Source: Minisyncoccota bacterium
GTDB lineage: Bacteria > Patescibacteriota > Minisyncoccia > Minisyncoccales > CG1-02-41-26
Direction: 5' to 3'
DNA: 64,000 nucleotides
NCBI GenBank assembly: GCA_028718785.1
Contig: JAQULB010000004.1
Span: 2,525-66,524 of the forward strand
Every line of letters begins with the position of its first letter. Position 1 is the stretch's first letter. A model generated the notes under the pieces. It was not told where the DNA came from. It did not search any database and was given only the letters and a program-made list of their open reading frames with translations. Both the position numbers and the translations under genes were made by a program. This document shows positions 1-31,156 of this stretch, piece by piece.

Positions 1-71
1 GCTTGGAACAGCGTGGATTTGCCCACATTTGGCAACCCCACAATCCCAACCGATAGTTTTGAAGTTGACAT
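1..71 (-). CDS. ychF: Ribosome-binding ATPase YchF, first ~23 codons only (gene continues past the window start)
   Basis: Hand translation of the minus strand from the ATG at 71-69 gives MSTSKLSVGIVGLPNVGKSTLFQA. This is the N-terminal P-loop (GxPNVGKST) typical of YchF/Obg-family proteins. It is missing from the ORF track because the window edge truncates it. Confidence 0.6.
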   Translation of the reverse strand, partial: MSTSKLSVGIVGLPNVGKSTLFQ

Positions 72-1641
72 AATTATTTATGTTAAAAACTGGCAAATGG
101 CCAAAAACTTGCAGTTCTTCTTTGGTCCCGATTATTCTATCTATAATATTCATTACAATAGCTCTTTTTTTCTCAAAATTCAAAGCCCCTAAAACCTCTG
201 CAGATTCTTTAGCAAAAGCTTCAATTTCATCTTGATTGGGTAAGTTTGTGTTTGTTTGCTCCTCTTCTTGATTTATTTCTAAAATCTGCGCTTCAAGTGT
301 TGTTATTCTTTCTCTTGTCTGAGTAGAGTATTCTTTTAACTTTTCTATCGTAAAAAGCCCGGCTCCGTACGCCCTGTTATAACGATCTTCCTCGCCTCTT
401 AACTTTACAATTTCTTTTTTAAGTGTATCTAAATTACAAAACGCTGGCTTAACTGCTATTTTTTTATTGTTTAACCAATGTTTAACTTGTTTTAATAACA
501 GGTCGGGAGATGTCATTAGTTTCTCTATTTTACCCCAAATGAGCTTGTCGGCAATTCTCGCATTAACAGCTTTTTCTTTACAAAGCGTCCCAAGCGGAAA
601 ATTAAGAGTCCTGTCAGTGCACCTATAATAAAGATGTTTTCCATGCTGTGGCCCCTCCCCCACCCTCCTTCTGCCACAAATACAATATATTTTACCCCCA
701 ACTAAATATTCATTTATTTTATTTCTTTTAGATAATGCGTAATTAGTTTTGAGCCGATCCTCTGCCTTAAAAAATGTATCTCTATCAATTATAACTGGCA
801 CAGGAATTTTTGAAGCTATCCATTCTTCTTCTGGTTTAGTCCTGCGGCTAGATTTTTTCATCTTTTTATATTTTTCTGTATTCAGTGGCCTTGTTGGCAC
901 AACGGCATAAGAACTCCCCCAATGCGCCTCGCCAATATACGCTTTATTTCTTAAAAGATGGCCTACTGTGCTTGTATTCCATACTCCCCTTTTGCTTTTT
1001 CTCGGTTTTATGTCTAAATCTTGCAACTTTTTAACCACCCCTCTTAATGTTAAGCCATCTTCAGCAACCCATTTGAAAATACTTTTAATAACATCCGCCT
1101 CTTTGTCGTTTATTTCGTAATAGCCATGTACATTTTCTTTTTTAGGGATATAGCGATAACCATATAAGGCCTCGCTCACCAAAAGATGCCCCTCCTTAAC
1201 CTTCCTCAACTTGCCTAACCTAAACCGTTCAGATATTTTTGCTCGCTCATATTCAGCAAATAATCCTCTAACGCCATGCAAAATTTTATCCTCGCTATTT
1301 TTTGGAGCGGATATTGTAATAAAAATCACCTCAATTCCAGCTTCCCTTAGTTCATCCATCACTAATTCTTGATAAGAATAACGCCTCGCCAGCCGATCTG
1401 GATCATATACTAAAACCACCTCCCAGATTTTTTCTTTTGCGTCTTGTCGCAGCTTATCAAGGGCGGGCCTTGCCAAAATGTCACCAGACCAGCCATCATC
1501 AATGTATTCTTGAACAATCGTATAGTCATTTTTTTCAGCATACTCTTTAAGAACACCGATTTGGGTTTGAATTGTTTGTTGTTCTTCCTGCCTCGAGGTA
1601 CTCACTCTTGAATATGTCGCTATTAATTTTGTTGTTTTCAT
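1..1641 (-). CDS. Large serine recombinase / integrase (no stop codon reached inside the window)
   Basis: Hand translation from the ATG at 1641-1639 gives MKTTKLIATYSRVSTSRQEEQ..., containing the resolvase catalytic motif YxRVSTxxQ. A recombinase domain, a Cys-rich zinc-ribbon (CICGRR...YYRC...LC) and a coiled-coil follow. 547 codons stay open to position 1. Confidence 0.9.
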   Translation of the reverse strand, partial: MKTTKLIATYSRVSTSRQEEQQTIQTQIGVLKEYAEKNDYTIVQEYIDDGWSGDILARPALDKLRQDAKEKIWEVVLVYDPDRLARRYSYQELVMDELREAGIEVIFITISAPKNSEDKILHGVRGLFAEYERAKISERFRLGKLRKVKEGHLLVSEALYGYRYIPKKENVHGYYEINDKEADVIKSIFKWVAEDGLTLRGVVKKLQDLDIKPRKSKRGVWNTSTVGHLLRNKAYIGEAHWGSSYAVVPTRPLNTEKYKKMKKSSRRTKPEEEWIASKIPVPVIIDRDTFFKAEDRLKTNYALSKRNKINEYLVGGKIYCICGRRRVGEGPQHGKHLYYRCTDRTLNFPLGTLCKEKAVNARIADKLIWGKIEKLMTSPDLLLKQVKHWLNNKKIAVKPAFCNLDTLKKEIVKLRGEEDRYNRAYGAGLFTIEKLKEYSTQTRERITTLEAQILEINQEEEQTNTNLPNQDEIEAFAKESAEVLGALNFEKKRAIVMNIIDRIIGTKEELQVFGHLPVFNINNYVNFKTIGWDCGVAKCGQIHAVPS

Positions 1642-1846
1642 AATCGTTTTTAGTTTTCCTCAACCGCATAACCTCTTCAAAAAGAATTTCAAAAGCTTTA
1701 TTAAGGTTATCGGCTGATTCTACATAATTATAACGCAAAGAGGGACAACGAAAAGACGGTTTGTTACTACACAAAAGCCCTCGTTGCCCCTCCTTAGGTT
1801 TTATCTTTATATCGTCTATTTTGCTTTTGTGTAGTAGTGATTTCAT
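1547..1846 (-). CDS. Hypothetical small protein upstream of the integrase
   Basis: ORF track only, with no recognisable motif. A 95-nt out-of-frame overlap with the integrase start lowers confidence. Confidence 0.25.
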   Translation of the reverse strand: MKSLLHKSKIDDIKIKPKEGQRGLLCSNKPSFRCPSLRYNYVESADNLNKAFEILFEEVMRLRKTKNDYENNKINSDIFKSEYLEAGRTTNNSNPNRCS

Positions 1847-1927
1847 TATACCATTTTATTCTTTAGTATCAAATACCCTGTAAAGCTTTAACTAGTTAAA
1901 ATATGCCGCATGGAAAGCAGTTTTACT

Positions 1928-2179
1928 TTAAATTGTGTTGTCCTCAGTTGCTTTTTTCTTTTCAGACAACCAGCTAAGATGCTTTAAAATTTGCCTTGCG
2001 TCTTGCTTGTCATAGTCGTCTTTTTCAACCAGTTTATAAAACCAGCGATGGATCATTTGTTTGCTAAAATTTTGGTTTTTGACTGCTTCCACGAAACAAA
2101 CATAAGAACTCCAATAAGGATTTTTATTTACAAAACTATTAAATCGCCTTTGTATGGATCGCATATTTTTATTTATCAA
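1928..2179 (-). CDS. Hypothetical protein of the integrated element
   Basis: 83-aa ORF co-oriented and tightly packed with the neighbouring element genes. No motif recognised. Confidence 0.35.
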   Translation of the reverse strand: MINKNMRSIQRRFNSFVNKNPYWSSYVCFVEAVKNQNFSKQMIHRWFYKLVEKDDYDKQDARQILKHLSWLSEKKKATEDNTI

Positions 2180-2546
2180 ATTCTGGTTTTGCCAAAGCCC
2201 TCATATAAAGGGTTAGTTCTTCCAAGTTGCCAGCTTCATGCGTTAAAATAGTTTCAACTGGCTTTCCGTCAACATAAGCCCAAATCATCTTTATAGCAGC
2301 AGTGTTGCCTTCAACAGCCAAACCCAATATCCTGTCAACAATAAACTCAAGATAGGTCTTTTTCTGCCCGGGAGGAATTTCATCAAGCTCTTGCCTTATT
2401 ATTGCTGTTATAGAAATAAATCCCTTGGGCTTGCCACCTAATTTGGGGTGTCCTTCAATAAATTGCCCTGTTTTTTCATCCCTTACCACTATATCCCCAC
2501 TATTATCTGGTTCTTGTTCTATTTTTTGCTCATTTTGTTCACTCAT
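2169..2546 (-). CDS. Hypothetical phage-type protein (GHPKLGGKPKG motif, reminiscent of the DUF5681 family)
   Basis: ORF track, 130 aa from a GTG. I prefer the ATG at 2546 (MSEQNEQ...). The Gly/Pro/Lys motif resembles phage DUF5681 proteins, from memory only. Confidence 0.45.
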   Translation of the reverse strand: MSEQNEQKIEQEPDNSGDIVVRDEKTGQFIEGHPKLGGKPKGFISITAIIRQELDEIPPGQKKTYLEFIVDRILGLAVEGNTAAIKMIWAYVDGKPVETILTHEAGNLEELTLYMRALAKPEFDK

Positions 2547-2556
2547 ATTGTTTTTG

Positions 2557-2570
2557 TGCACGATCGTGCA
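2557..2570. promoter_or_regulatory. Perfect 14-bp palindrome TGCACGATCGTGCA (operator-like)
   Basis: Read directly from the sequence, about 10 nt upstream of the 2546 start. The same TGCAC-N4-GTGCA architecture recurs at 8997-9010 and 12236-12249. Confidence 0.5.
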
Positions 2571-2602
2571 ATTTCTTTATGACCTTTGAATTTTAGTAAT
2601 TC

Positions 2603-2694
2603 CACCCAAACTACCCAAACTACCCAATTTTCAAGTCAAAGCTACCATGGGGACCGACTTTAATTTATGGTAGTTTTGGTAGTTATGGTAGTAA
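2603..2694. repeat. Inverted iteron arrays (candidate replication origin of the element)
   Basis: The left array is CACCCAAACTACCCAAACTACCCAA (2603-2627), with CTACCATGG in the centre. The right array is ATGGTAGTTTTGGTAGTTATGGTAGTAA (2667-2694), the reverse-complement unit. The arrays overlap the 3' end of the primase-helicase gene. Confidence 0.55.
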
Positions 2695-4122
2695 TTTCTC
2701 CTGTTCAGCCAATTCTGCATAATACTTCTCCTCACTTGTCAAGCTTTCTTCCTTTTTTTGCCTTAAAGCCAAATTCACTATCCCCACAAAACTATCCTCA
2801 TCTTGCTTTCTTTTACCTACGATATATCCCTCACTTCTTACCATCTGTCCTACTTGTTTTATTGTCAGAAGCCTTAATCTCTTTTCTCTTAACCATAAAT
2901 TGAAGTTAACGGTAAAATCTTGCAATTTTGTATTCTCTCCAACTACATCTTCATAATTCTCCTCAATAAACTTTGGCAAGGGGTTAGACCTTTCTTCATA
3001 CCGTCGTTCTCTTTCATCGTAATTACCTTCGTTTGTGAATTGGTGTGTTTCGTATAACTTTTTTAAGGTATTAACGCACTTCAAACAAAGATTTTCATAT
3101 TCTTGCTCTGAAACTACTAAAATTACATCTGACTTTATTTCGAACCTATTTGGGAAGTCTGTAATTGCCCATCTCCTATAAAATCCCATAGACCTATCTG
3201 GCGTTGTTGGCAAGCTATTCGTTGATATAATAATTGTAGTGATAGTCGGTGCTGAAAAAGAATTTTTACCCTTAAACTCATATTCTATCTTGTCTTCTCC
3301 AGTCAACATCTTTAGGGTGTTTGTGTTTGAAAGGTCTCCATAACCAACCTCTCCTGCGAAAGCCACTAATTTTTTATAAATAGCACTCTTGGCGAAGTCG
3401 TTTGAAGATAACTTTTTTAGTTCTACTGCCACGCAATTTTCACTGCCTACCAATTTCTCTATAACCTTTAAGAAAGTTCCTTTGCCGTTGCTTCCACCTC
3501 CTGTAAGTGCTATCACTCGTTGCATAAACAAATCATCTGTCAGTGAATAAGCCAAATATTCATATAAGCTTTGAACATAACTTTCATCTTGCACTCCATC
3601 TCTCACTGCCCACTGGTGCAAAAGTTTATCTAATTCTGGTGCTTCTTCCGATTCTCCTAATTTATGTGGTATTGGATTAGTTAAAAAGTATTCATGGCTT
3701 GCCTCTACCTTCTCCCCTGTCTTTGGATTTACTAAAGTATTTAAGAATTGTATCCAACCTTTTGGTTTTTCTTTTGGTGATTGTTCCCTGCCAACCTGTT
3801 TTAACGCAGTCAATATTTCTGCTTTAGTTCTATTGGTAATAGTATCTATTCCCATCTCCTTTCTAATTCCGTTCAATAAATCAACTTCATCTTTCATCTC
3901 ATAGCAGTATCTTTCAGCGTTCCAGAACCAGAATATTCCCTCTGGTGAATAAAATAGTGGTTGTTCTTTTATGAACGCTTCTGCTTGCCCTATTTTGGTA
4001 AAGACCTTGCCTCTTTTTTCTTCTTTTATTTCTTTATTTTTTCCTATAATATCCTCTAATTCTTTTTCGTTTCCCTCAAATCCAGTTTCTTTTGGGCTAC
4101 TATCTAAATTATTTTCTGACAT
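2683..4122 (-). CDS. Phage/plasmid primase-helicase, P4 / D5 family
   Basis: 479 aa. The Walker A is ALTGGGSNGKGTF, followed by a typical D5/P4 C-terminal helicase region (ISTNSLP, YRRW). Confidence 0.85.
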   Translation of the reverse strand: MSENNLDSSPKETGFEGNEKELEDIIGKNKEIKEEKRGKVFTKIGQAEAFIKEQPLFYSPEGIFWFWNAERYCYEMKDEVDLLNGIRKEMGIDTITNRTKAEILTALKQVGREQSPKEKPKGWIQFLNTLVNPKTGEKVEASHEYFLTNPIPHKLGESEEAPELDKLLHQWAVRDGVQDESYVQSLYEYLAYSLTDDLFMQRVIALTGGGSNGKGTFLKVIEKLVGSENCVAVELKKLSSNDFAKSAIYKKLVAFAGEVGYGDLSNTNTLKMLTGEDKIEYEFKGKNSFSAPTITTIIISTNSLPTTPDRSMGFYRRWAITDFPNRFEIKSDVILVVSEQEYENLCLKCVNTLKKLYETHQFTNEGNYDERERRYEERSNPLPKFIEENYEDVVGENTKLQDFTVNFNLWLREKRLRLLTIKQVGQMVRSEGYIVGKRKQDEDSFVGIVNLALRQKKEESLTSEEKYYAELAEQEKLLP

Positions 4123-4227
4123 AATCTTCTGCAGGCTGTTAGGTACAGATGATAGGCAGAAGATTAATTAAGCTATTATCTGCCACCTAGCAAACCCTTA
4201 AATTATTCTTTTTTTATTGACCTTTAT

Positions 4228-4821
4228 TTATTGCAACGATAGCACTGCATCTTTGAAACTTAATCCTCTCACTTTCATCACGAAATCGATTGCGTCCCCC
4301 GTTGCCCCACAAGCGTGGCAATAATAGAAATTGCCCTTTATGTTTAACGATGGGTGCTTTTCTTGTCCTCCAGCGTGAAAGGGGCACCTAACCACATAAC
4401 CTCTTACTTGCCCATACATCTGCTCGTAAATTTGCTTTAATAACCGACTTTTCGCCACTTGCATCTGGTAGTCTGTTAATTTACCCTCAGTTTCTTTTGG
4501 TGGCTCAATAAAGCAAGCTATTCTTTGGGCTTCCCTGTTTATTTCTTTTATCGGCTGTAAATCGAACACTGATATAGTCTTTGCCTTAAACCACCTATCG
4601 AACTCGTTCTGGTACTGGTATGCTTTATGCTTTTCTAATTTTCTTTTGGCTTCTTTGACTAATTGCTCTTTTCGTTCAGTTAATTCTTCCAACCTTTCAA
4701 CAAAATATTCTTTCGCTTCGGGGAATATTTCTAACCACTGCTTTTCAGATAACCACTCTCTTCGGCTTTCATATTGTTTTTCAAGTTCCAGTGTTATTGA
4801 TTCGGTTTGGTCAAAATTCAT
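4228..4821 (-). CDS. CHC2 (DnaG-type) zinc-finger protein, primase-associated
   Basis: The C-terminal sequence CPFHAGGQEKHPSLNIKGNFYYCHACGATGDAIDF is the CHC2 zinc-finger signature. Confidence 0.75.
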   Translation of the reverse strand: MNFDQTESITLELEKQYESRREWLSEKQWLEIFPEAKEYFVERLEELTERKEQLVKEAKRKLEKHKAYQYQNEFDRWFKAKTISVFDLQPIKEINREAQRIACFIEPPKETEGKLTDYQMQVAKSRLLKQIYEQMYGQVRGYVVRCPFHAGGQEKHPSLNIKGNFYYCHACGATGDAIDFVMKVRGLSFKDAVLSLQ

Positions 4822-4825
4822 AATT

Positions 4826-5038
4826 TTATTTGTTTAGATGCGGGTATCTTTCAATAAACCTCATGTCTTCTCCCTCGTCCAATACCCATTTAAGAATATC
4901 GGCCTTTCCTTCTAACCACCTTAAAAATTCTTCATTTTCGCCCTCAGCATTCCTGTGGTGAACAATATGGTCGGAAGTAGAAAATACAGCATCATCGTAA
5001 TTTTTTAACATTTCCCTAATTTCTTGTTCTGTTTTCAT
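4826..5038 (-). CDS. Hypothetical protein of the integrated element
   Basis: 70-aa ORF, 4 nt from the downstream gene. No motif recognised. Confidence 0.35.
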   Translation of the reverse strand: MKTEQEIREMLKNYDDAVFSTSDHIVHHRNAEGENEEFLRWLEGKADILKWVLDEGEDMRFIERYPHLNK

Positions 5039-5081
5039 ATTTGTTCTGTTTTTTTATTTTATGACTTTTTGAACATAGGTT

Positions 5082-5279
5082 TTACAGGTCGCCAGTTTCT
5101 TTTCTGCGTTTTTGAATTTGTTTATACTCCGCCTCTGTCATTGGGCGATAAGTTAACTCAACAAGCCGAAGAAGGGCAACTCCTTTTTCGTAAGCTTCAT
5201 TTCGGCTAATGGTTTTTCCGAAATGGCTTTCGTAAATCTTCTGAAATTTTTCAATTTGTGTGTTGGATAGCATAAACAA
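5082..5279 (-). CDS. Hypothetical protein of the integrated element
   Basis: 65-aa ORF, the first gene of the minus-strand block. No motif recognised. Confidence 0.35.
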   Translation of the reverse strand: MFMLSNTQIEKFQKIYESHFGKTISRNEAYEKGVALLRLVELTYRPMTEAEYKQIQKRRKETGDL

Positions 5280-5281
5280 AA

Positions 5282-5356
5282 ATCCGTTAAAAGCAGGGCG
5301 GGCTCCATTTGGCGATTTCGCCTACCCGGTTTTTAACGGATCTTTTTCGCCAAATG
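5282..5356. repeat. GC-rich element with interleaved inverted repeats (A-B-A'-B')
   Basis: ATCCGTTAAAA (5282-5292) pairs with TTTTAACGGAT (5330-5340). CCATTTGGCGA (5305-5315) pairs with TCGCCAAATGG (5346-5356). Confidence 0.4.
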
Positions 5357-5367
5357 GATTTGCTGTC

Positions 5368-5403
5368 AAATAAAAATAGCCAGAACATATTGTTGTTCTG
5401 GCT
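5368..5403 (-). terminator. Intrinsic-terminator-like hairpin (T-run on the minus strand)
   Basis: AGCCAGAACA-tattgt-TGTTCTGGCT is preceded on the plus strand by an A-run, which is a T-run on the minus strand. Confidence 0.45.
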
Positions 5404-5629
5404 ATTTAAAAACCCAAAAAGAAAGAATTACAACAACAATATGTTGGTAAAACCTCTTTTTGGGTCTTGGTCTTTCTGTGGCATTAGTTTATCCAAATAG
5501 AAAGATTTTGACCGATAAATTTTAATTTATTTTTATATTACAGTAACTTGAAAACTGGGTCAAGTCACGCAATTAAGCCCCGGAATCCACTAAAATCTCC
5601 TCATTTTTACCATCTTTTTAGTTTCTAAC

Positions 5630-5658
5630 TTCCAAAAATCAAAGATTTATGCTATATT
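5630..5658 (+). promoter_or_regulatory. Candidate sigma70-type promoter (TTCCAA-17-TATATT)
   Basis: The -35 is TTCCAA at 5630-5635, the spacer is 17 nt, and the -10 is TATATT at 5653-5658. It lies upstream of the GC-rich leader and the 5845 ORF. Confidence 0.35.
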
Positions 5659-5695
5659 AAAAATAATAATTGAATTGCCTAAACTCGTTTTTTAT

Positions 5696-5815
5696 CGGGC
5701 ATGGCATAAAACCACATGCATACTGAACCAGTCGTTCAGCTCCATGCATGTGGTCTACGCTCGAAAGGGCGTGGGAGGACGCAAGTTCTCGGCTAGCGGC
5801 GGGTTTTGTGTTTTC
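5696..5815 (+). ncRNA. Candidate structured RNA / 5' leader (family unassigned)
   Basis: A GC-rich island in AT-rich DNA. It has a long hairpin, CCACATGCAT..CTGAAC-cagtc-GTTCAG..ATGCATGTGG (5712-5753). A second hairpin, CGCTC-GAAA-GGGCG (5758-5771), has a GNRA loop and a U-G wobble only on the plus strand. Confidence 0.3.
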
Positions 5816-5844
5816 CATTAACAAATAAACTATAATTAAAATAT

Positions 5845-6462
5845 ATGCCTGAACAAGGAATACAAAAAAACCCAATAGAGAAGAAAAAGAAAACTAATGG
5901 TTGTTTAGTGGTTTTTCTTGTTATTGTCGGGGTAATTATTATCGGTGTGCTTTCTAGTAGTGGTAGTAAGAATAAAAGTGCGGAAACATCAAAGAAAGAA
6001 ATGCCAGCCGTCTCCTCTTCAATGAATCAAGTTTCAAGTGCGCCAACTTCGCAGGAAACATCAGAAAAAAAAGCTCAAACTGAAGCAAAAATGAAACAAA
6101 TAGAGAAAGAAATGGAATACAGAACAAAGATAATAAAAATTTGCCAAACAATTTTAGTGGCACAACAGGGCCTGCGTGATTTTCTACTGAAAAATCCTTT
6201 CCCCCCTTCTTGGACAGATAGTGAAACAGCAATGGTGGCAGATTGGATAAACACTATGAGAGAGAGTTATGAGGATACAAAATATATTCAAGCCCCAGAG
6301 GAATTAAAGGAACAACACCAAACTTTTTTAAGGGGAATGAAATACTACAATGACGGCATAGAGGAGCTTGTAAAAGGGTTAGCTCTTTCCGACTCCTCTT
6401 TGATTGAGCAAGCGACAAAGACGATGAATAAGGGAGCGGATCTTTTAAGTGAGGTTCGTTGA
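5845..6462 (+). CDS. Hypothetical membrane-anchored protein
   Basis: 205 aa with an N-terminal TM helix (CLVVFLVIVGVIIIGVL), then a low-complexity linker and a helical domain. Confidence 0.5.
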   Translation: MPEQGIQKNPIEKKKKTNGCLVVFLVIVGVIIIGVLSSSGSKNKSAETSKKEMPAVSSSMNQVSSAPTSQETSEKKAQTEAKMKQIEKEMEYRTKIIKICQTILVAQQGLRDFLLKNPFPPSWTDSETAMVADWINTMRESYEDTKYIQAPEELKEQHQTFLRGMKYYNDGIEELVKGLALSDSSLIEQATKTMNKGADLLSEVR

Positions 6463-6482
6463 TATATCGCTAATTAAAAAAT

Positions 6483-7010
6483 ATGACAAATAATAACACG
6501 GAAAAAATAATCGGCTGGTATGAAATAGCTACTGACCATTTCTTTTGCGTTGAGTGCTTTCTTAAATTAAAAAATTTAAATAAAAAAAGCTATGAAGCAA
6601 TGGTTGATTTTCTCAAGAATCGAATCCAAAAGAAAAAAGACTACAAACTAACATATAAACCAATACAAAAAGAGGATTTAGGGGAGGATGTTTATACTTG
6701 TGATAAATGCGGAAGGGATTATGGAAGAGGGAAAGAGCCAAATAAAGAAGAGGAAAAAGTAGTTAAAAGAGAAATCCAAGAAACAAAATGCACCTGTAGT
6801 GCTTGTGGAAATGTTTGGTTTTATGGCAAAGAAGATGTCGCAAAAGAAAGGGAGAAAATAAGGGACAACGCAGGTAGGGCTATGGCTTGTTGCGGTGGTT
6901 GTTTATTACCGATGTTGCTTACTCCGCACAGAGAACCTATAGACCTTGATAAATGTCCAAAGTGTAATTCGAAAGCAATAACAAAAGAAACAGTTGTTCA
7001 CAATGTCTAA
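6483..7010 (+). CDS. Hypothetical multi-zinc-ribbon protein
   Basis: 175 aa with four CxxC-type pairs (CVEC, CDKCG, CTCSACG, CPKCN). Confidence 0.5.
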   Translation: MTNNNTEKIIGWYEIATDHFFCVECFLKLKNLNKKSYEAMVDFLKNRIQKKKDYKLTYKPIQKEDLGEDVYTCDKCGRDYGRGKEPNKEEEKVVKREIQETKCTCSACGNVWFYGKEDVAKEREKIRDNAGRAMACCGGCLLPMLLTPHREPIDLDKCPKCNSKAITKETVVHNV

Positions 7011-7221
7011 AATAATAATTCTTTTAATAAGGATATATCAAAAAACACTTTCTCATCTTTTAGTTTATTTAGGAGTAAGGTGCCGTTTTTACCCAACTTG
7101 TTCAGAATATGCAATTTTGTCTCTCGAAAAATATGGCTTACGAATTGGCATCAAAAAAATATATCATAGATTATACAGATGTCGCCCTGATAATTTTGAA
7201 AGTTGTATAGATTTTCCATAA
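7003..7221 (+). CDS. yidD: Membrane protein insertion efficiency factor YidD
   Basis: The sequence MSKIIILLIRIYQKTLS...CRFYPTCSEYAILSLEKYG...RLYRCRPDN is the YidD signature. The start was moved to the ATG at 7003. Confidence 0.85.
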   Translation: MSKIIILLIRIYQKTLSHLLVYLGVRCRFYPTCSEYAILSLEKYGLRIGIKKIYHRLYRCRPDNFESCIDFP

Positions 7222-7268
7222 ATAATATTACAAAGGTTTAATAAATAAAAGTAATTATCTAAAATTAT

Positions 7269-7382
7269 ATGTCAGAAAAAAGTGTCAAAGAAGCAAAAAG
7301 CTATCCAATAGCCGGGACTTTAATCATAATTATTATGGTTATAGTAGCTATTTATATTGGCAGCTATTTCGGTAGTCGATAA
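7269..7382 (+). CDS. Possible 37-aa single-pass membrane peptide
   Basis: Hand-found ORF MSEKSVKEAKSYPIAGTLIIIIMVIVAIYIGSYFGSR, below the ORF-track cutoff. Confidence 0.3.
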   Translation: MSEKSVKEAKSYPIAGTLIIIIMVIVAIYIGSYFGSR

Positions 7383-7470
7383 TTAAGGATACAAACATAA
7401 AAGCTGTTATTGCTTATATAAACAAAGGTCAGAGTCATTAAAAATTAAATTAAAATTACAATTAAAAAAT

Positions 7471-8982
7471 ATGACAAAAATATTTCAGAAAACATATTTT
7501 TATGTTTCGCTTATTAGTTGTTTAGCTCTTTTGTTTTGTCTTGCGCCAAAGATTACCGAGGCCGCTTCTTTGAACTTCGCGCTCAATCCCTATCAAGGTG
7601 AAATTAGACCGGGCGGAGCAATTTTAATTGGAACAAACCCAATTTTTGATACCAATGAAGCCACTATTGAGGCCTGGATTAACCCGAAAAGCTATCCAAC
7701 GGGTATTGGCGAAGATGAAGGGCGAACTATTTTATGGAATGGCGATGGCACAGGAGGACACGATCCTTATTGGATTTTGTTAAATACCAGTGGGCGGTTA
7801 GAGGCCAGAGTTGACTATGACTCGCCTTACCAACAGCATATTTTCGTTTCCTCTGACCCCATAGAGCTGAACACTTGGCACCACTTTGCTTTAGTTATTG
7901 GGGCAGTTTCAACGGACTTATACATTGATGGCGTAAAACAGCCCGGAACATTCCTAAATGGCGGTCCAGCTTGCAAAGGCACAAACTATTTAGCTGTGGG
8001 GCGAAGTATGTGGCACTGGAATCCTTATGAGGGTTTAATAGACGAAATGAGAATTTGGAAAGTAGCCAGAACAGTAACGGAGATTCAAAATGATAGATGG
8101 ACTGGAAGCGTATCAGGCGATAATCCAGATTTAGTTGCTTATTGGGACTATGAGCAGGGCGCTAACTCAAGCGTGCTTTACGATTTAACGCCAAACCATC
8201 TTAATGGAGGGATTCAGGGTTGCACTTGGACTAATGAAAGCGCGCCTGCTCCTCCTTGCCAGGCAGATGTCTGGTCGTGTGGTGAGTGGAATGCTTGCTC
8301 TATTTCTGGCACTCAAACAAGAACCTGCGCTAAAACTTTTGAATGTTCAACCGTAGACACCCCCTCCCCAGCAACCTCGCAGAGCTGTGTTTATACCCCA
8401 CCAACCTGTACCTCTTGGATTTATTCGGATTGGTCTGCTTGTCAGCCAAATGGCACTCAAACAAGAAGCATCGCAAGCTCTACTCCTAATGGCTGTGCTG
8501 GCGGTAATCCAGTTTTAACTCAAAATTGTATTTATACACCATCACCATGTACTGCCGATGTTTGGTCGTGCGGTGAATGGGGATTTTGCTTTGTAAATGG
8601 AAAACAAAGCCGAAATTGCACTAAAACATTTGATTGCTTAACTGCAAATACACCCTCACCAGCTACTTCGCAAAAATGTACTTATCAGAAACCCACATGT
8701 ACTGCAGACACATGGACTTGCGGTGCATGGGGAGAATGCTCGCTTTCTGGGATACAGAATCGTAGTTGCACTAAAACCTTTGACTGCCCGGATATTCAAA
8801 CAGCGCCACCGACAACCGAACAATATTGTAAGGCCCCGAATAAGCCCACAAATCAATCTTCTTCAAGTGATGAGGCTACGATAGCGCAATTAAAATCACA
8901 AATCGCAGACCTTCAGAGACAAATAATGATTTTGCTTACTCAACTAATTCAGGTATTGCAACAACAGTTAGGCCACCGATAA
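7471..8982 (+). CDS. Secreted LamG/concanavalin-A-like lectin-domain protein with four Cys/Trp-rich thrombospondin-type-1-like repeats
   Basis: It has a signal peptide and a LamG-type region (EAWINPKSYP..DEMRIWKVARTVTEIQ). Four ~48-aa repeats follow the pattern C..D.W.CG.W..C...G.Q.R.C.KTF.C......P, then a C-terminal coiled-coil. Confidence 0.75.
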   Translation: MTKIFQKTYFYVSLISCLALLFCLAPKITEAASLNFALNPYQGEIRPGGAILIGTNPIFDTNEATIEAWINPKSYPTGIGEDEGRTILWNGDGTGGHDPYWILLNTSGRLEARVDYDSPYQQHIFVSSDPIELNTWHHFALVIGAVSTDLYIDGVKQPGTFLNGGPACKGTNYLAVGRSMWHWNPYEGLIDEMRIWKVARTVTEIQNDRWTGSVSGDNPDLVAYWDYEQGANSSVLYDLTPNHLNGGIQGCTWTNESAPAPPCQADVWSCGEWNACSISGTQTRTCAKTFECSTVDTPSPATSQSCVYTPPTCTSWIYSDWSACQPNGTQTRSIASSTPNGCAGGNPVLTQNCIYTPSPCTADVWSCGEWGFCFVNGKQSRNCTKTFDCLTANTPSPATSQKCTYQKPTCTADTWTCGAWGECSLSGIQNRSCTKTFDCPDIQTAPPTTEQYCKAPNKPTNQSSSSDEATIAQLKSQIADLQRQIMILLTQLIQVLQQQLGHR

Positions 8983-8992
8983 GAACCAATAA

Positions 8993-9060
8993 AAATTGCA
9001 CAGGTGTGCAAAAATAGAACTTGGCGTTTTTAGAAATTAACCCGAAGTTGTTTTTACCTG
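8993..9060. repeat. Degenerate repeat copy A, containing the TGCAC-AGGT-GTGCA palindrome at 8997-9010
   Basis: It shares three blocks with copy B (12232-12300): TTGCACA-N2-TGTGCA, GCGTTTTT-N-GAAATT and GTTGTTTT. More TGCAC motifs occur at 9083-9204. Confidence 0.5.
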
Positions 9061-9249
9061 AAAAGTATCCCTTTGGCGTTGCACAAATAGGTCATTTAAT
9101 GATCCAAAAAGCTTATTTTTATTGAACAAATTGGAACTAAAAATGCACAATGGTGTAAAATAACTCAATAAATAAACTTTGCACAATTCGTGCACCTTTG
9201 CACCTTTTTGTATTAGTAATCCTTGAATTTCTACCGGGTAGCCTCTACA

Positions 9250-9389
9250 ATGCCCCTTTTTGCCCCAAAATGCCCGCTCACGCCACGATTCAGAGGCATA
9301 GGGAGCTTAAGTAGTAGGTAGATACTACTTTGGACAAACGGTTGCCGAACCCCTTGCCTGTAAGCATAGGAAAAGGCAAAAAAGGGCAT
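9250..9389. other. GC-enriched structured island (candidate ncRNA or palindromic-element remnant)
   Basis: The 15-bp inverted repeat ATGCCCCTTTTTGCC (9250-9264) / GGCAAAAAAGGGCAT (9375-9389) encloses the hairpin AAGTAGTA-ggtaga-TACTACTT. It also encloses a half-copy of the GGCAACC palindrome, ACGGTTGCCG at 9338-9347. Confidence 0.3.
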
Positions 9390-9530
9390 TTTATTTGCCA
9401 CTTGCGGCTCGGTTTTATTACAATGTACTTTAATTCTGCCCCCTGCACAGGAATTGAATCCTTCTTTACAATTAGCTTTTTAGCGCTAAAATCAAATTAA
9501 AACAGAGGGATAAGTTAAAGTTTTGAGATT

Positions 9531-10175
9531 ATGCCCAATCGATTCCTTGAAAAAAATAAAACCTATTTTGAGCTCATCGGGGTTATGGCAGCAATTGGAG
9601 CGATTTTTTTGACTATTCCAACGCCCGAAAATGATAAGGCTCAAAATGCCCTGATGAACATCCAGTTAATTTGGCTAATAATAATTTCTGTCTCTCTTTT
9701 GTTGCTTTTTTATAAATTTTTTAGATTCTTTCTTCTTGTAGAAGATTTGGCAGAAAAAAATGGCTTACATTTTTATAGTTCATTGGCAGTGATACCATTT
9801 TTTATGGGTGGTTTAATTCTTTATCATTTATGGAGGTACATTTTTATAATATATGGTAGTAATTACAAAGGTTCTATTTTACAGTATTTGTTGGGGATAG
9901 TATTTTCCATATATATAGCTTTTACCATTTTTGTTTCTAAAAAATTTATCCAAGATTATTTACACAAAAAGATCGGCCCATATCTTTTTAAAATTTTTTC
10001 CTATTTGTTGATTTCTAGTGCAGTAGTTTCTTTTTTATTCTATTTACTAAATTTAAGATTCCAAATTGATCGGTGGTTTTCTTCTTTTCTTTTAACCTTC
10101 TTGATAGCATATTGTATAGTTGTGTTTTATAGTTATTGGTATATTAAAAATAATCCTCATATTAAGAAACTTTGA
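9531..10175 (+). CDS. Hypothetical polytopic membrane protein
   Basis: 214 aa with about six hydrophobic segments. No family recognised. Confidence 0.5.
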   Translation: MPNRFLEKNKTYFELIGVMAAIGAIFLTIPTPENDKAQNALMNIQLIWLIIISVSLLLLFYKFFRFFLLVEDLAEKNGLHFYSSLAVIPFFMGGLILYHLWRYIFIIYGSNYKGSILQYLLGIVFSIYIAFTIFVSKKFIQDYLHKKIGPYLFKIFSYLLISSAVVSFLFYLLNLRFQIDRWFSSFLLTFLIAYCIVVFYSYWYIKNNPHIKKL

Positions 10176-10347
10176 CTAAAAAAGTTCCGTGTCGTAAATT
10201 GCTCGCATGTTGAACAATGTTCTAACCCCGATATAACAGTAAGGGCGATATTTCGCAGAAGCGGAATTTGATAAAAGGGCCACATTGGAATTAAATAATA
10301 CTAACAGGGAATAATTTATAAATACCTATTACGAGAGTCGCTTAATG

Positions 10348-10377
10348 TTTTTTGGGTTGAAGTAACCCAAAAAAATT
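10348..10377. terminator. Bidirectional intrinsic terminator
   Basis: TTTTTTGGGTT-gaagt-AACCCAAAAAAA. Confidence 0.5.
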
Positions 10378-10401
10378 CATTTGGCTATTTCTACTGAAAG
10401 T

Positions 10402-10962
10402 ATGCGGAAACCGAATACTCAAGATTTACAAAACTTTACAAAAGAATATTTTAAAAAGAACCCCCCTATTGTTAAGTGGAAAAAGATAGACTGCAATGGG
10501 TTAGCAGATACAGAAAATAATATAATCTATTTAAACCCTGAAAATTCTGAAAAAGAATTTGGTTGTCAGGTGACTGAGGGTTCCTATAAACCAAAAACTA
10601 GAATAAGATTTAAAGATGGTGAACAATATTTTGCTGTCCTTCTCCACGAAATAGCAGAGTTTAAGTTCTACGGTAAGATAAAACCTCCTAAATGTTTTAA
10701 GGAAATCAAGAATAAAATAATAAAAAAACTTCGAAGAGAGGCCGTTGAAAAATCAAAAAAATTAAAAACAGAATATAAGGAGCCTACTTTGGATGATGTG
10801 GCTTACTTGGCACAAGATTGCTTTGAAGACCCTGGAGATCACTGTGAATTTCGTGCTTGGCTTTTAGGAAGACTAAATATCGACCACATTAAAGTGGAAG
10901 ATTGGGCAGTTCAAAAATTTAAAAAGAGAAGAAAAGACATAGCTATTCTTCTATCGGATTAA
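10402..10962 (+). CDS. Hypothetical protein (LLHEIAEF, a possibly degenerate zincin-like motif)
   Basis: From the ORF track. I prefer the ATG at 10402, because the track start at 10381 is a TTG directly abutting the terminator. Confidence 0.45.
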   Translation: MRKPNTQDLQNFTKEYFKKNPPIVKWKKIDCNGLADTENNIIYLNPENSEKEFGCQVTEGSYKPKTRIRFKDGEQYFAVLLHEIAEFKFYGKIKPPKCFKEIKNKIIKKLRREAVEKSKKLKTEYKEPTLDDVAYLAQDCFEDPGDHCEFRAWLLGRLNIDHIKVEDWAVQKFKKRRKDIAILLSD

Positions 10963-10984
10963 AAAATACATTGAAATTCAGACA

Positions 10985-11047
10985 GTCACTCCAAGCCACG
11001 CTTTTTGGCGTTTTTAAAAAAGTTCGGATTCCATAGACATGCACAAT
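10985..11047. repeat. Degenerate repeat copy C
   Basis: It contains GTCACT, CTTTTTGGCGTTTTTAAAAAAGTT and ATGCACAA. It shares GTCACT with copy B and TTGGCGTTTTTA with copy A. Confidence 0.4.
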
Positions 11048-11048
11048 A

Positions 11049-11750
11049 TCATACAGTGGGATTACCTGACCCAGAATCTGGATCTTCAGGATAGAATCTA
11101 CTTTTTTGGACTATATGAAATTGTTTAGCTTTTTCCCTCATTTTCTCAACTTCAATCTTCGGCATTTGTTTAAATGTTTTATTCTTAGCATCAATTGTTG
11201 CCACCTTTGTTTCTCCACCAACTCCACTTCCTCCTTGGCGTGCAGTTTCTTCAATACATAATACAGCCATCTCGGCTACTCCGTTCATTTTCACTTCTGT
11301 TTCATATACGCTAGTTAAGATATAATCAGCAATATAAGGAACTCCGATACATTCATAGCCAACCATGCATTTTCTTGGAACAAAATTATCGTTACTTTCC
11401 AATCTATAAATTTCCGCAGTTTCCTCCTTTGAATAACCAACTAAAATAAGAGATAGCCTGGGTCTTTTTTCTGGAGATAGATGTTCAAAAAAATCATTAA
11501 ATTTCGCTTTACCTTTTTGTCTCATTTCTTCGGCTAAATGCAAAACTCCTTGGCTATAATTTAACTCTCCTTTTATTTGGTCGAGAAAATATGTTGCTAA
11601 TCCCCCATCTCCCGATATACCAACAGCATTACTACTTCCAATAGAAAAAATTTTAATCACCTTGTCGTTGCTAGTTAGCTCACCCGTGGCCTGGCTATCA
11701 GAAGCAATAACAATTCCATCTTTAGTTTTTAGACCTATAACGAGTGTCAT
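11049..11750 (-). CDS. Proteasome beta-subunit-like Ntn peptidase (stand-alone, Anbu/BPH/HslV-like)
   Basis: The N-terminus is M-TLVIGLKTKDGIVIASDSQAT. Thr1 follows Met directly, with Asp17 and Lys32/33 at proteasome-type positions. The GSGVGG region is also typical of the T1 family. Confidence 0.8.
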   Translation of the reverse strand: MTLVIGLKTKDGIVIASDSQATGELTSNDKVIKIFSIGSSNAVGISGDGGLATYFLDQIKGELNYSQGVLHLAEEMRQKGKAKFNDFFEHLSPEKRPRLSLILVGYSKEETAEIYRLESNDNFVPRKCMVGYECIGVPYIADYILTSVYETEVKMNGVAEMAVLCIEETARQGGSGVGGETKVATIDAKNKTFKQMPKIEVEKMREKAKQFHIVQKSRFYPEDPDSGSGNPTV

Positions 11751-12104
11751 TTAATTGAGGTTTACCTTTACTTCCAAGGGACTAATTGGCTCCTTGGGAT
11801 TATATTGAGGGACATATTGTTTATACATCTGTTTTTCTACAGCTTTTCTTTTTTCATCCCCTTTAATTGGAGCATATCTAAAAGAAAATTCTCCCTGCTT
11901 TAAGAAACTATCTTCTTTAGATAGGAGTAAGCTCAATTCATTTTTTATGTCAGTAGCGCTCCCAATGAAAATAACATAAAACTTACCATCGGATTCTTTT
12001 TTGGATATACGAAAAACACCTTCAACTATACCATTTAATCTATCCATCCCCTCAGGGGTTAACGGTACGAGGGTGGACCATACTAAATTTATATCGTAAT
12101 TCAT
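11751..12104 (-). CDS. GIY-YIG-like domain protein (Arg of the canonical motif not evident)
   Basis: Motifs are GVFRISKK..GKFYVIFIGSATDIKNEL (GIY...YIG-like) and EKQMYKQYVPQYNP (E...P.YN). The stop abuts the peptidase ATG. I use the ATG at 12104 with AAGGA upstream, as the track start is a TTG. Confidence 0.5.
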   Translation of the reverse strand: MNYDINLVWSTLVPLTPEGMDRLNGIVEGVFRISKKESDGKFYVIFIGSATDIKNELSLLLSKEDSFLKQGEFSFRYAPIKGDEKRKAVEKQMYKQYVPQYNPKEPISPLEVKVNLN

Positions 12105-12231
12105 AGGTTCCTTAAAATATATTATGATTATACACTTTACCAAGAATAAAATCTACATCAAGCTTTCATAAAAATAAATTATGTTCCCCGATAAAATACA
12201 GGCGCTTTATAAGGAGTGGTTGAGGTTTGAC

Positions 12232-12300
12232 TTTTTGCACAAATGTGCACAGAAGTCACTTTTTAGCGTTTTTGGAAATTTAGTTGCGGTTGTTTTCGCC
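12232..12300. repeat. Degenerate repeat copy B, containing the TGCAC-AAAT-GTGCA palindrome at 12236-12249
   Basis: See copy A. It lies about 130 bp upstream of the GIY-YIG-like/peptidase operon. Confidence 0.5.
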
Positions 12301-12514
12301 CGTGGAGTAGTATTTTTACCTACTCTCTTTTTTTTTACCGATTATTAAAGAGAAACAAACTTTTATTTATAATACTCTGAGTAAGTTGGCAGTTTTATTG
12401 AAAATTCAAACGGTATCAATTTTACGCTATTATCGCCCACACAATGTCGGGTAGTGTCCCAACTATGCCGATTGATAAGCTCATATTTTAAATTTATTGC
12501 TTATAAAAATTAAT

Positions 12515-13135
12515 TTATAAATGACGACTGTCATTAAACGCCTCAATACTCCAAACATTGTCTTTTTTTTCACAAAGCGTAATGCTGGTGTTGTAGATTC
12601 TAAAAGTATCTGTAAAGCTATAAAAAATTTCAGGCGTTACCATATTCCCCAAAGCCATTAACAATGCAATCATTTTAATTGTGCCTCCATGCGAAACAAC
12701 CAAAATATTTTCTTGCCTTGCTTCTATGGTTAAAAAATCTAAAAACTTTTTCACCCTGTTTTTAAAATCAATAAAATTTTCCTCGTCAGAATAATGCCAA
12801 TCTGGGTCGTTTTGATGGGCATTAAGTATTTTATGCAATTCCAGCGAAGCTGGATCGTCTCTTTTCTTGCCAACAAACTCTGATGGCCTTTTCCACTCTT
12901 GAATTAAATCAGAATAAACTATTTCTTTTTTTAATTTTTTATTTATAATTTCAGCGGTGTGCTTCGCCCTTTTCATAGGACTTGAAAAAATAACATCAAC
13001 TGGAATTTTTAAAAATCTTTTAGTCAAAACCCCTGCTTGCTTTAAGCCCCTTTCAGATAACTCCACAGTATGGTCTTGGCGTATATTTAAAACATTGTGC
13101 CCTGTTTCCCCATGCCTCACAAAATACACTTTCAT
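12515..13135 (-). CDS. Histidine phosphatase family protein (phosphoglycerate-mutase-like)
   Basis: The N-terminal VYFVRHGETGHN carries the RHG motif, and a SHGG motif occurs later. Confidence 0.85.
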   Translation of the reverse strand: MKVYFVRHGETGHNVLNIRQDHTVELSERGLKQAGVLTKRFLKIPVDVIFSSPMKRAKHTAEIINKKLKKEIVYSDLIQEWKRPSEFVGKKRDDPASLELHKILNAHQNDPDWHYSDEENFIDFKNRVKKFLDFLTIEARQENILVVSHGGTIKMIALLMALGNMVTPEIFYSFTDTFRIYNTSITLCEKKDNVWSIEAFNDSRHL

Positions 13136-13140
13136 ATTTT

Positions 13141-13683
13141 TTAAATTTCTAATTGCATTATTATTTTTACAATAAGTTTTCCTTTGTATTGAACAGAATT
13201 GGGGATTTTCGCCACTGGCTTAAAACCCATCTTCTTATATAAAGCAATGGCTGGTAAATTGCCTTCATAAACTCCTAATTCAATTATTTTTGGAGTTGGT
13301 CTTAAATCTGCCTTTGCCATTTTGATTGAATTTTCCATTAAATACTTGCCCAAGCCAATTCCGCGAAACCCCTGTTTAACAGCAATGCCAAGCCCGCCAA
13401 TATGGTTGCTTCTTTCTCGTTCAAGTAATATATTGCAAGTTCCCACTATTTCTTTGTTATTTTCAGCGATTAAATAAACTGCTTTGCGTTGTTTTACCTC
13501 TTTTAAGCGGCGTTTTAGCCATTCTAATTCGTCTTTTTTTGTCTTTTTAGTATTCATTAAAATCATGGCGTCCTCAGCAATCAAAGAATTAACAAATTTT
13601 TGAAATTTTTCTGGCTGGTTAACATCGCTTGGCGTCAACTTGCGAATTATTATTTTTTTGTCCCCAAAAATTCTCGTTTCCAT
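13141..13683 (-). CDS. GNAT family N-acetyltransferase
   Basis: GIAVKQGFRGIGLGKYLM is the acetyl-CoA-binding motif. The start was moved to METRIFG, which avoids overlap with the upstream gene. Confidence 0.8.
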   Translation of the reverse strand: METRIFGDKKIIIRKLTPSDVNQPEKFQKFVNSLIAEDAMILMNTKKTKKDELEWLKRRLKEVKQRKAVYLIAENNKEIVGTCNILLERERSNHIGGLGIAVKQGFRGIGLGKYLMENSIKMAKADLRPTPKIIELGVYEGNLPAIALYKKMGFKPVAKIPNSVQYKGKLIVKIIMQLEI

Positions 13684-13693
13684 AAATTTATTT

Positions 13694-14368
13694 TTAAAAA
13701 ATATTGAGTAAATCTGGCAGTGAGCAAATTGTGAAGTCAACAATATCCTCTGGGATATCCTGGCGGTTAGTAGAATTAAAAAATACGGTTGTTATTCCTA
13801 ATTGTTTAGCAACATCTAAACTTCGTTCAATATTATCATCAATCATTGCGGATTCTTCTGGCTTGGCTTTAGCGTCTTTTAAAACTGCTTTAAAAAAGGC
13901 AGGGTCTGGTTTGTGCAAGCCATAATCCTCTGATATTCCCAAAACCTTAAAGTGGCCAAATAACCCAGCTTGTCTTAAAACATTTTTTATATCTGAAGAG
14001 TAATTAGAAATTATGCCCAAAGAGTAATTTTTTGAAAGTTTTTTAATCACTTCCAAGGCGTTTGGGATAATGGGCATGTTTTGTAAAATTTTTGTTCCTT
14101 GAGCGTGGATTTCATTCTTAATTTTTTCAGCTAATTCTTTGTCGCCTGTTAGTATCTCTAAAATATTTTGCCTTAAAGAGCCATGCATTTTGCTGGCTTG
14201 TTTAACCACATCTTCAAAATCTTCTTCTGATATTTTGGGTTTTATTTTTTTGGCCTGTGAGAGCAAAATGTCTTTACGCCAAATATTATATTCTGATTCA
14301 TCTCTTAACACCCCGCCAATATCAAAAAATATCCATTTTATTCTTTGTTGTGATGTTTCAGGTTTCAT
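13694..14368 (-). CDS. HAD-superfamily hydrolase
   Basis: WIFFDIGGVL fits motif I. IISN, K-P and IDDN fit motifs II-IV. Confidence 0.8.
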   Translation of the reverse strand: MKPETSQQRIKWIFFDIGGVLRDESEYNIWRKDILLSQAKKIKPKISEEDFEDVVKQASKMHGSLRQNILEILTGDKELAEKIKNEIHAQGTKILQNMPIIPNALEVIKKLSKNYSLGIISNYSSDIKNVLRQAGLFGHFKVLGISEDYGLHKPDPAFFKAVLKDAKAKPEESAMIDDNIERSLDVAKQLGITTVFFNSTNRQDIPEDIVDFTICSLPDLLNIF

Positions 14369-25390: not shown

Positions 25391-25527
25391 GTTAGAAATT
25401 TTTAATTGAACGGCGAATTTATGAGTCGTGAAATTTAAAAGTTCTTACACCCCGTTAAATAATTTTAAATTAGTAAATTTAAAATTAAAATTTGTACTCA
25501 AATTTTATTTAACAGGGTAAATTCGTA

Positions 25528-26940: not shown

Positions 26941-26949
26941 ATATTTTAT

Positions 26950-28704: not shown

Positions 28705-28716
28705 ATATTTAATAAA

Positions 28717-29028: not shown

Positions 29029-29036
29029 AAGTAAAT

Positions 29037-30041: not shown

Positions 30042-30046
30042 ATTCT

Positions 30047-31067: not shown

Positions 31068-31156
31068 ACGATAAATAATTTTTAATTTTTAATTTTTAAT
31101 TTTTAAAACGCTAAAAAATTGAAAACTAAAATAATTAAAAATTTAATAAATTAACT

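Follow-up and report, generated by a model that had tools for sequence, protein, structure and literature searches.

A 12.4-kb element very probably integrated into ychF of a Patescibacteria genome through an attachment site inside its own serine-integrase gene

Serine integrases are major tools of genome engineering, and attP, the attachment site of the element, is normally described as lying beside the integrase gene. Other systems place it within a gene: in Myxococcus phage Mx8 (IntP/IntX), attP is part of the int gene, integration alters the C-terminus of the integrase and excision restores it, and SSV1-type archaeal integrases reportedly also have attP within the int gene, which integration splits. 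In mycobacteriophages such as BPs, which use a tyrosine integrase, attP is located in the repressor gene, and the change of the repressor C-terminus upon integration acts as a switch between the free and the integrated state. The RAP44-like phages of Riemerella have their attachment site within the integrase open reading frame (ORF), the gene being split on integration (PMC12169736); integration-dependent immunity of mycobacteriophages is mentioned as well (PMC4929511). As for ychF, the target gene considered here, a defective prophage of Streptococcus pneumoniae lies between dnaN and ychF and changes ychF expression when it integrates; that site is intergenic, a 14-bp direct repeat rearranges the -35 region of ychF, and the ychF coding sequence is left untouched (PMC6375853, PMC8637289). 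A prophage at this pneumococcal ychF attB (PPH005) is classed with the tyrosine integrases (PMC8637289). To date, a literature search has returned no prior account of a serine integrase that targets ychF, of an intragenic attP in a serine-integrase gene, or of serine recombinases in Patescibacteria. In this report, we examine the left end of a stretch of 64,000 nucleotides (nt) from a Minisyncoccota bacterium (contig JAQULB010000004.1; the whole stretch is called the window), where the gene of a large serine integrase runs into ychF. Our main finding, held with high confidence, is that a 12.4-kb element was inserted by its serine integrase into codon 6 of ychF, that its attP lies inside its own integrase gene, and that the insertion replaced the start of ychF and swapped the end of the integrase. 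We document both junctions, the empty site in a relative, the free circle of a family member, and the same architecture across dozens of genomes. The arrangement is well supported in its anatomy; its functional consequences we infer.

As a preliminary description of the window had stated, the integrase frame is open on the minus strand from position 1641 to position 1, that is, over 547 codons without a stop. The leftward extension that it had proposed as a check was made possible by a public contig (L001), which is identical to window positions 1-14122 (100% over 14,122 nt, no mismatches) and reaches 1,917 nt beyond the left edge. The integrase TGA was found there, 50 nt outside the window, and the gene in its integrated, hybrid form (1-1641, minus strand, the last 16 codons and the stop lying outside the left edge) thus encodes 563 amino acids (aa). 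On the same contig ychF is full length at 356 aa (TIGR00092, 395.7 bits against a cut-off of 279). The two genes do overlap out of frame, as had been claimed, over a true length of 122 nt rather than the 71 nt first given. Window positions 71-1 of the minus strand, in a frame other than that of the integrase, read MSTSKLSVGIVGLPNVGKSTLFQ. This present 5' end of ychF (1-71, minus strand) consists of an element-supplied ATG and 8-residue leader, MSTSKLSV, followed by host sequence from the crossover glycine on (GIVGLPNVGKSTLF...). The gene caller had shifted the annotated ychF start downstream and thereby avoided the overlap; because that start would remove the P-loop, the ATG at position 71 is taken to be the real one. 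In the hybrid integrase, residues up to about 532 come from the element, and the final 31 residues are ychF read out of frame.

Two of the arguments first advanced for a junction at this place do not discriminate. The length of the overlap says little, an open out-of-frame run of about 40 codons being not improbable by chance, and the significance of the junction rests on comparative evidence instead. The missing ribosome-binding site of ychF is normal in this genome: a Shine-Dalgarno-like tetramer precedes just 9 of the 41 long ORFs, and none precedes the native ychF start, now an orphan, that is described below. Most starts among the long ORFs of the window are preceded by A/T-rich sequence, and translation initiation in this genome seems to be largely independent of Shine-Dalgarno sequences.

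The integrase is, by domain content and structure prediction, a large serine recombinase with a resolvase catalytic domain, a recombinase domain, and a zinc ribbon with coiled coil, in the same domain order as PhiC31, Bxb1, Listeria A118/LI, SPbeta SprA, TP901-1 and CcrB of SCCmec. The Resolvase domain (PF00239, E 1.5e-30, residues 8-152) and the Recombinase domain (PF07508, E 1.4e-19) are clear; the zinc ribbon (PF13408) is weak, at 19.7 bits under a cut-off of 25.3, with cysteines C320, C322, C341 and C354 invariant among 32 homologues. Residues S14, T15, Q18, R58, R83 and R86, among others, are likewise invariant in this alignment, for which the window integrase served as reference sequence. 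The domain search found no phage-integrase (tyrosine recombinase) domain in the protein, and in NCBIfam it belongs to no named equivalog, the best match being CcrB at 115 bits against a cut-off of 900. A 99-aa ORF without family match (1547-1846, minus strand), which shares 95 nt with the start of the integrase gene (ATG at 1641), might be a directionality factor or a regulator.

More than 2,000 homologues of the integrase were found, and the top 120, which are 59-100% identical, come mostly from Patescibacteria. Their C-termini diverge into two classes after a conserved ...LQVYGYIPV motif: among the 117 best classifiable homologues, 86 end, like the window integrase, in the out-of-frame P-loop region of ychF, and 31 end in a conserved native tail, ...RH...KLIPFxFxIxLP.... 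The far end of the element was located by searching the window with this native tail class, and then with a profile hidden Markov model (HMM) of native tails. Minus-strand positions 12387-12473 match such a tail (E 2.4e-4 by tblastn with the tail of P0047; E 1.2e-9 with the HMM). Direct and inverted repeats, searched for across the extended locus, were of no use in placing the ends of the element; such a search is uninformative here because the junctions made by serine integrases share too little sequence.

The near junction, attL (22-71, minus strand), comprises a P arm at 48-71 (ATGTCAACTTCAAAACTATCGGTT), the central GG at 46-47 and a B' arm at 22-45; it was delimited from the consensus of 58 sequences from 61 fusion loci together with an analysis of dyad symmetry. 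The far junction, attR (12444-12493, minus strand), has its B arm at 12470-12493, the GG at 12468-12469 and the P' arm at 12444-12467 (CATAGTTGGGACACTACCCGACAT). The integrated element thereby spans 47-12468, or 12,422 bp when one copy of the central GG is counted. At the far junction lies the orphaned original start of ychF (12422-12484, minus strand), which reads MSLSIG followed by IVGTLPDIVWAIIA and a stop; its first six codons come from native ychF and the remainder from the element. Its ATG is located 30 nt past the stop of a histidine-phosphatase gene (His_Phos_1; 12515-13135, minus strand), and the whole 20-codon frame reads MSLSIGIVGTLPDIVWAIIA. The phosphatase gene marks the host flank and was the original upstream neighbour of ychF. 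Behind the orphan start comes the detached 3' end of the integrase gene (12363-12467, minus strand), that is, the native last 34 codons, HSWDTTRHCVGDNSVKLIPFEFSIKLPTYSEYYK, and their stop. When the host halves are joined in silico, the native YchF N-terminus MSLSIG+IVGLPNVGKS is obtained; when the element halves are joined, the result is an integrase of 566 aa that ends in ...NFKTIGW followed by HSWDTTRHCVGDNSVKLIPFEFSIKLPTYSEYYK, a tail that matches the native class. The reconstructed attP junction is ATGTCAACTTCAAAACTATCGGTTGGCATAGTTGGGACACTACCCGACAT and the reconstructed attB is ATTTAAAATATGAGCTTATCAATCGGGATTGTGGGGTTGCCAAATGTGGG. There are thus two junctions, whose halves reassemble into one uninterrupted host site and one uninterrupted element site. 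The suggestion of the preliminary description that an element had recombined at or just inside the 5' end of ychF is borne out: the crossover falls, most probably, at the GG of native ychF codon 6 (window 46-47), with the second junction at 12444-12493.

The attachment sites themselves could be described from the family. attP is a 50-bp imperfect palindrome, ATGTC-N19-GG-N19-GACAT, located within the reading frame of the integrase at a distance of about 25-40 codons from its native stop; the consensus of 9 uninterrupted and 13 reconstructed sites is ATGTCga.tT.....CTa.C.AT. GG.AT.G...GaaCaCAAcc.GACAt, with ATGTC and GACAT at positions 20-24 on either side of the central GG. With the axis placed between the two G, the complementarity of the arms is 0.57 for all 22 sites and 0.61 for the 9 uninterrupted ones, against at most 0.36 for the other axes from -12 to +12. 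The replacement start codon of ychF falls inside the outer ATGTC of the left arm, and attP read in the +1 frame yields an ATG and eight codons that mimic the N-terminus of YchF. In our reading the same 50 bp has two other roles: it codes for a linker of the integrase, and it would be the site to which the enzyme binds. attB corresponds to ychF codons 1-13, with its central GG in the first glycine codon of S-I-G-I-V-G. Many far junctions at other loci read IG-M-(V/E)-(R/stop), and the codons past the first glycine are therefore element-derived; to judge from the dyad symmetry, the central dinucleotide, and with it the cleavage site, would be the GG of this first glycine codon. An attP of about 50 bp with an imperfect dyad and a non-palindromic 2-bp centre, together with a less symmetric attB, fits the serine-integrase pattern as far as sequence can tell.

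An empty site, recognized by sequence comparison, is present in a related genome (L092/L093), which is of a different species or strain and does not come from the same population as the window genome. Its YchF is the closest relative found (90% identical); the gene is flanked by PDDEXK_1 and HAD hydrolase genes upstream and by SIMPL downstream, with no integrase. To the right of the crossover, L092 matches the host side of attL at 52 of 60 nt, against 34 of 68 for the element (P') side; to the left, it matches the host side of attR at 41 of 63 nt, against 33 of 65 for the element (P) side. Upstream of ychF this element-free relative lacks the sequence found at window positions 72-120, whose presence there would have spoken for an ordinary upstream region, and resembles the far junction instead. 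The native start also prevails more widely: 104 of the 120 closest YchF homologues begin with M-x-L-S-I-GIVG, the same type as the orphan, whereas YchF of the window has the leader MSTSKLSV.

To assess the arrangement across genomes, one genome per species was scanned, which gave 80 loci with a related integrase. At no fewer than 57 of them, ychF starts within a few nt of the end of the integrase core, and four further loci stop at a contig edge inside the P-loop, without a separate YchF match. At 56 of the 61 fusion loci, the ATG brought by the element is located exactly 24 nt 5' of the central GG. The integrase tail encoded by the host, by comparison, ranges from 19 to 142 nt (median 43; 97 in the window) and is a by-product rather than a conserved feature. 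About 24 loci have their far junction inside the 10-kb flank; there the tail remnant is always on the integrase strand and nearly always follows an orphan start of the type M..(L/F).IG. The remnant tail frames that were inspected are open, with no stops through the IPF motif, which suggests that these elements are still mobile. Cargo varies between loci: a Toprim primase and a restriction-modification system are found at one of them (L009), and a P4-type primase, a LamG protein and a proteasome-like subunit in the window. No relatives of the integrase were present among the 2.9 million contigs of IMG/VR, and the PLSDB plasmids held only relatives of about 30% identity; the family therefore corresponds to no recognised group of phages and to no known group of plasmids.

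The free form is known from a family member, L104, with none found for the element of the window itself. When metagenome contigs were scanned for the pattern of an uninterrupted attP, 35 sites were found to adjoin an integrase homologue. One of them is on L104, an 8,737-bp contig whose 127-bp terminal repeat indicates a circle of 8,610 bp; it carries a complete 557-aa integrase with native tail (about 65% identical where its N-terminal part could be aligned), an intact attP and a D12 methyltransferase with a PD-(D/E)XK nuclease, and it lacks ychF. That an uninterrupted integrase means a free element was only partly supported as a general rule, some being found on contigs of 0.4-2.25 Mb. Near uninterrupted integrases we also observed decayed or extra junctions of P-P' type (L005, 12668-12793; L039, 1268-1375; L082, 17669-17761), and a left junction in which the 'host' arm is element-like, MSISKLSIG (L122, reverse strand, at about nt 563 from the end). 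These four cases point to serial or tandem integration in which the target is an earlier attL, its element-derived arm mimicking attB; this may explain the uninterrupted integrases on chromosome-sized contigs. Two cultured isolates have family members with the intragenic palindrome, namely Bradyrhizobium manausense BR 3351 (L039), in which the integrase tail is frameshifted, and Nemorincola caseinilytica JCM 32105 (L082); they could act as experimental handles.

Structure prediction gives a view of what the exchange would do to the protein. The AlphaFold2 model of an uninterrupted homologue (P0068; 30-sequence alignment, mean predicted local distance difference test (pLDDT) score 69.8) has a standard serine-integrase body with long helices at 385-470. 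Its top Foldseek matches are serine integrases of the SPbeta type, PhiC31, Bxb1 and LI (9dxh, 9rah, 9iu2, 4kis), with E values of 2e-19 to 2e-14 for the full-length SPbeta-type, PhiC31 and Bxb1 proteins. At the C-terminus the model has an additional module, made up of two helices and a hairpin (507-525); beyond it come a disordered stretch (530-548) and then a confident strand, KIIPFEFRIK (550-559, pLDDT about 84). The residues encoded by attP, Y530-H546, coincide with the disordered stretch, which would explain how the same 50 bp could serve as a linker, as the leader of YchF in an alternative frame and as a binding site. In the model of the integrated form (P0001) the hairpin is retained and the tail, 506-551, is disordered (pLDDT 26-33); according to these models, integration removes the last beta-strand of the integrase.

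The junctions most likely arise when the circular element recombines through its intragenic attP with attB at codon 6 of ychF. The target gene stays intact, gaining the ATG and 8-residue leader of the element; what precedes it is now the integrase gene rather than its own upstream region, and its native start remains at the other junction as an orphan of 20 codons. A distance of 12.4 kb parts the integrase gene from its last 34 codons, the frame continuing out of frame into ychF up to a chance stop, and excision would rejoin the gene and restore the native end of the 566-aa protein. ychF would now presumably be transcribed from within the element, through the integrase gene; promoter and terminator scans around both junctions gave nothing above shuffled expectation. 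On the models, loss of the terminal beta-strand may alter the activity or stability of the integrase, and the state of the gene could then be part of the control of integration and excision. By analogy with IntP/IntX of Mx8, the tail swap may lower or change the function of the integrase after integration.

This locus thus shares features with several described systems. Like the large serine integrases of phages and of integrative and conjugative elements, it combines an attP of about 50 bp that is an imperfect palindrome, a non-palindromic central dinucleotide and a short target in a conserved gene. Unlike them, it has attP in its own coding sequence, so that integration exchanges the last 34 residues or so, and the enzyme has an extra C-terminal helix-hairpin-strand module; moreover the target is codon 6 of ychF, for which the element supplies a replacement start and leader. 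With Mx8, SSV1 and the RAP44-like phages it has in common an attachment site inside the integrase ORF. Those, however, are tyrosine recombinases with tRNA targets and a shared core, whereas the window element has a serine recombinase with a 2-nt crossover, and its overlapped segment, unlike theirs, is dual-coding for the N-terminus of the target protein. The element therefore resembles the Mx8/SSV1 type in its intragenic attP but is not a member of it, the tyrosine domain being absent. As with BPs, integration changes the C-terminus of an element-encoded protein; here the protein is the recombinase itself and not a repressor, and its function as a switch would be by inference. Finally, the integrase gene lies directly upstream of ychF, as it does in the pneumococcal prophage.

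Several observations weigh against this reconstruction or loosen parts of it. Both samples that contain the window element show the integrated form only, with no read-level or experimental sign of excision, and a promoter scan upstream of ychF inside the integrase gene gave no signal above chance. Large contigs (449 kb, 2.25 Mb and 68-101 kb), mostly from bacteria outside the candidate phyla radiation (CPR), also carry uninterrupted integrases, and ychF is absent from the 10 kb around these. The dyad symmetry of attB is weak (0.35), and attL and attR are imperfectly similar over about 20 nt, so that sequence comparison alone permits other crossovers, for example at the last glycine of GIVG. 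Both AlphaFold models are modest in confidence (mean pLDDT 66-70). The crossover at that last glycine codon (GG at window 37-38 and 12458-12459) leaves the architecture unchanged, and as attL and attR are identical at the GGG there, the window element alone cannot separate the two positions. It was rejected on the basis of the other loci, where many far junctions read IG-M-(V/E)-(R/stop) and not IG-I-V-G, and of the symmetry of attP, which peaks sharply at the first GG; we consider it improbable.

Two further explanations would do away with the intragenic attP, or with integration altogether. An element might have entered at ychF and its integrase since become a decaying pseudogene that lost its stop, the similarity of the far tail being due to chance and attP lying outside the gene. 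The predicted disorder of the hybrid tail, and the fact that excision of this copy is without evidence, are in line with this. Yet the window integrase has all the residues that are invariant across the 32 homologues (of whose alignment it is the reference), and the tail remnant, at its HMM E value of 1.2e-9, is in the right frame and on the right strand directly after the orphan start. The same configuration recurs at about 24 other loci, with remnant frames apparently intact in those inspected, and the palindrome lies inside the ORF in nine uninterrupted genes, which were picked by integrase similarity only, and in the circular contig, which came from the attP scan. We therefore give decay very little credence. 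Still harder to believe is that the integrase-ychF overlap is an ordinary, vertically inherited arrangement, or the mark of a domesticated integrase, and no attachment junction at all. Its recurrence at 57 or more of the 80 loci, in many lineages of Patescibacteria, is what such an arrangement would produce, and the preliminary description had allowed for it, should the stop lie just past the window and the overlap be conserved. Both of these are the case, but all the loci show the same kind of integration junction and not an ordinary gene order: the closest relative has a syntenic ychF without integrase, most of the close YchF proteins carry the short native N-terminus, an orphan ychF start and an integrase tail are found 12.4 kb away, the cargo between the junctions and the length of the host-encoded tail differ from locus to locus, and a circular form exists.

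Integration into ychF through an intragenic attP may be carried one step further, in a joint reading that we offer as tentative and regard as rather unlikely to hold in all its parts. The C-terminal swap would be a built-in state sensor: the terminal beta-strand, available in the circular state only, would be needed for stability of the integrase or for its integrative mode, and the hybrid integrase would be crippled or biased towards excision, so that directionality, or commitment, would be encoded in part by the topology of the integrase gene. The 50 bp of attP would form a three-way overlapping code for an enzyme linker, the N-terminus of the target protein and a DNA binding site (predicted), and this would let the element sit at the 5' end of a conserved gene that nonetheless stays active. 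The LOOT RNA described below would be a core regulatory or replication RNA.

Besides the integrase, the element holds small ORFs, a P4-family primase/helicase, a CHC2 zinc-finger protein, the LOOT RNA, a cargo operon on the opposite strand (DUF7018, LamG-domain and membrane proteins) and a proteasome-like subunit. The primase/helicase (2683-4122, minus strand; DUF5906, TIGR01613, 122.4 bits against a cut-off of 108.7) is probably the replication protein of the element, to judge from its family. At its 3' end, an inverted repeat (2604-2689; 34-nt arms, 76% complementary, 18-nt spacer) with reiterated GGGTAGTTT units could be a terminator or an origin/iteron region. The CHC2 (DnaG-type) zinc-finger protein is encoded at 4228-4821 (minus strand; domain match) and the proteasome-like subunit at 11049-11750 (minus strand; PF00227, with weak matches to archaeal beta and alpha subunits); the latter is cargo and not a host gene, because it sits inside the element. 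A PHROGs search of the element returned only primase/helicase matches and weak ones through the LamG domain, with no recognisable capsid genes, and by the measure of capsid, tail, terminase and lysis genes the element is not a temperate phage.

The LOOT RNA (Rfam RF03000) lies at 5676-5790 on the plus strand, with the full model covered at 77.2 bits against a gathering score of 46.4. It is also present in 9 of 15 related CPR loci besides the window, the circular L104 among them (L018 6824-6947, L013 6392-6512, L016 5934-6059, L035 7838-7971, L009 3277-3396, L104 3697-3819, L015 6396-6517, L025 4451-4556 and L028 6154-6277), and is absent from seven loci with uninterrupted integrases, mostly of non-CPR bacteria. 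Every copy lies on the strand that does not encode the integrase, in a divergent intergenic region upstream of mutually non-homologous genes. To our knowledge no function has been assigned to this motif; it could be a regulatory, antisense or replication-related RNA of the element family.

Outside the element, the window encodes a 1,366-aa helicase-nuclease of the UvrD/AddA type (19990-24090, minus strand) with an intein (Intein_splicing and Hint) within its helicase domain, and an operon for a V/A-type ATPase (24779-33079, minus strand; subunits D, B, A, C/AC39 and I); the genome seems to be of the Paceibacteria type (Patescibacteria).

The integrase of the window belongs to a large natural family, with more than 2,000 homologues mostly in Patescibacteria, in which attP lies within the integrase ORF, the C-terminus of the enzyme is rewritten upon integration, and the target gene is given a new start codon. 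This is possibly a new layer of directionality control, and the state sensor, if true, would be without precedent among serine integrases; a test of this control could draw on the 566-aa and 563-aa proteins and on four sites of 50 bp. As attB is a P-loop-proximal coding sequence of the very widely conserved ychF, its choice may explain the wide host spread of the family, which also offers a ready catalogue of integrase/att pairs. The LOOT RNA, for its part, gains a consistent genomic location inside these elements. Little is known about the mobile elements of CPR bacteria; the family represents a widespread class of small non-phage integrative elements in these hosts, with restriction-modification systems among their cargo.

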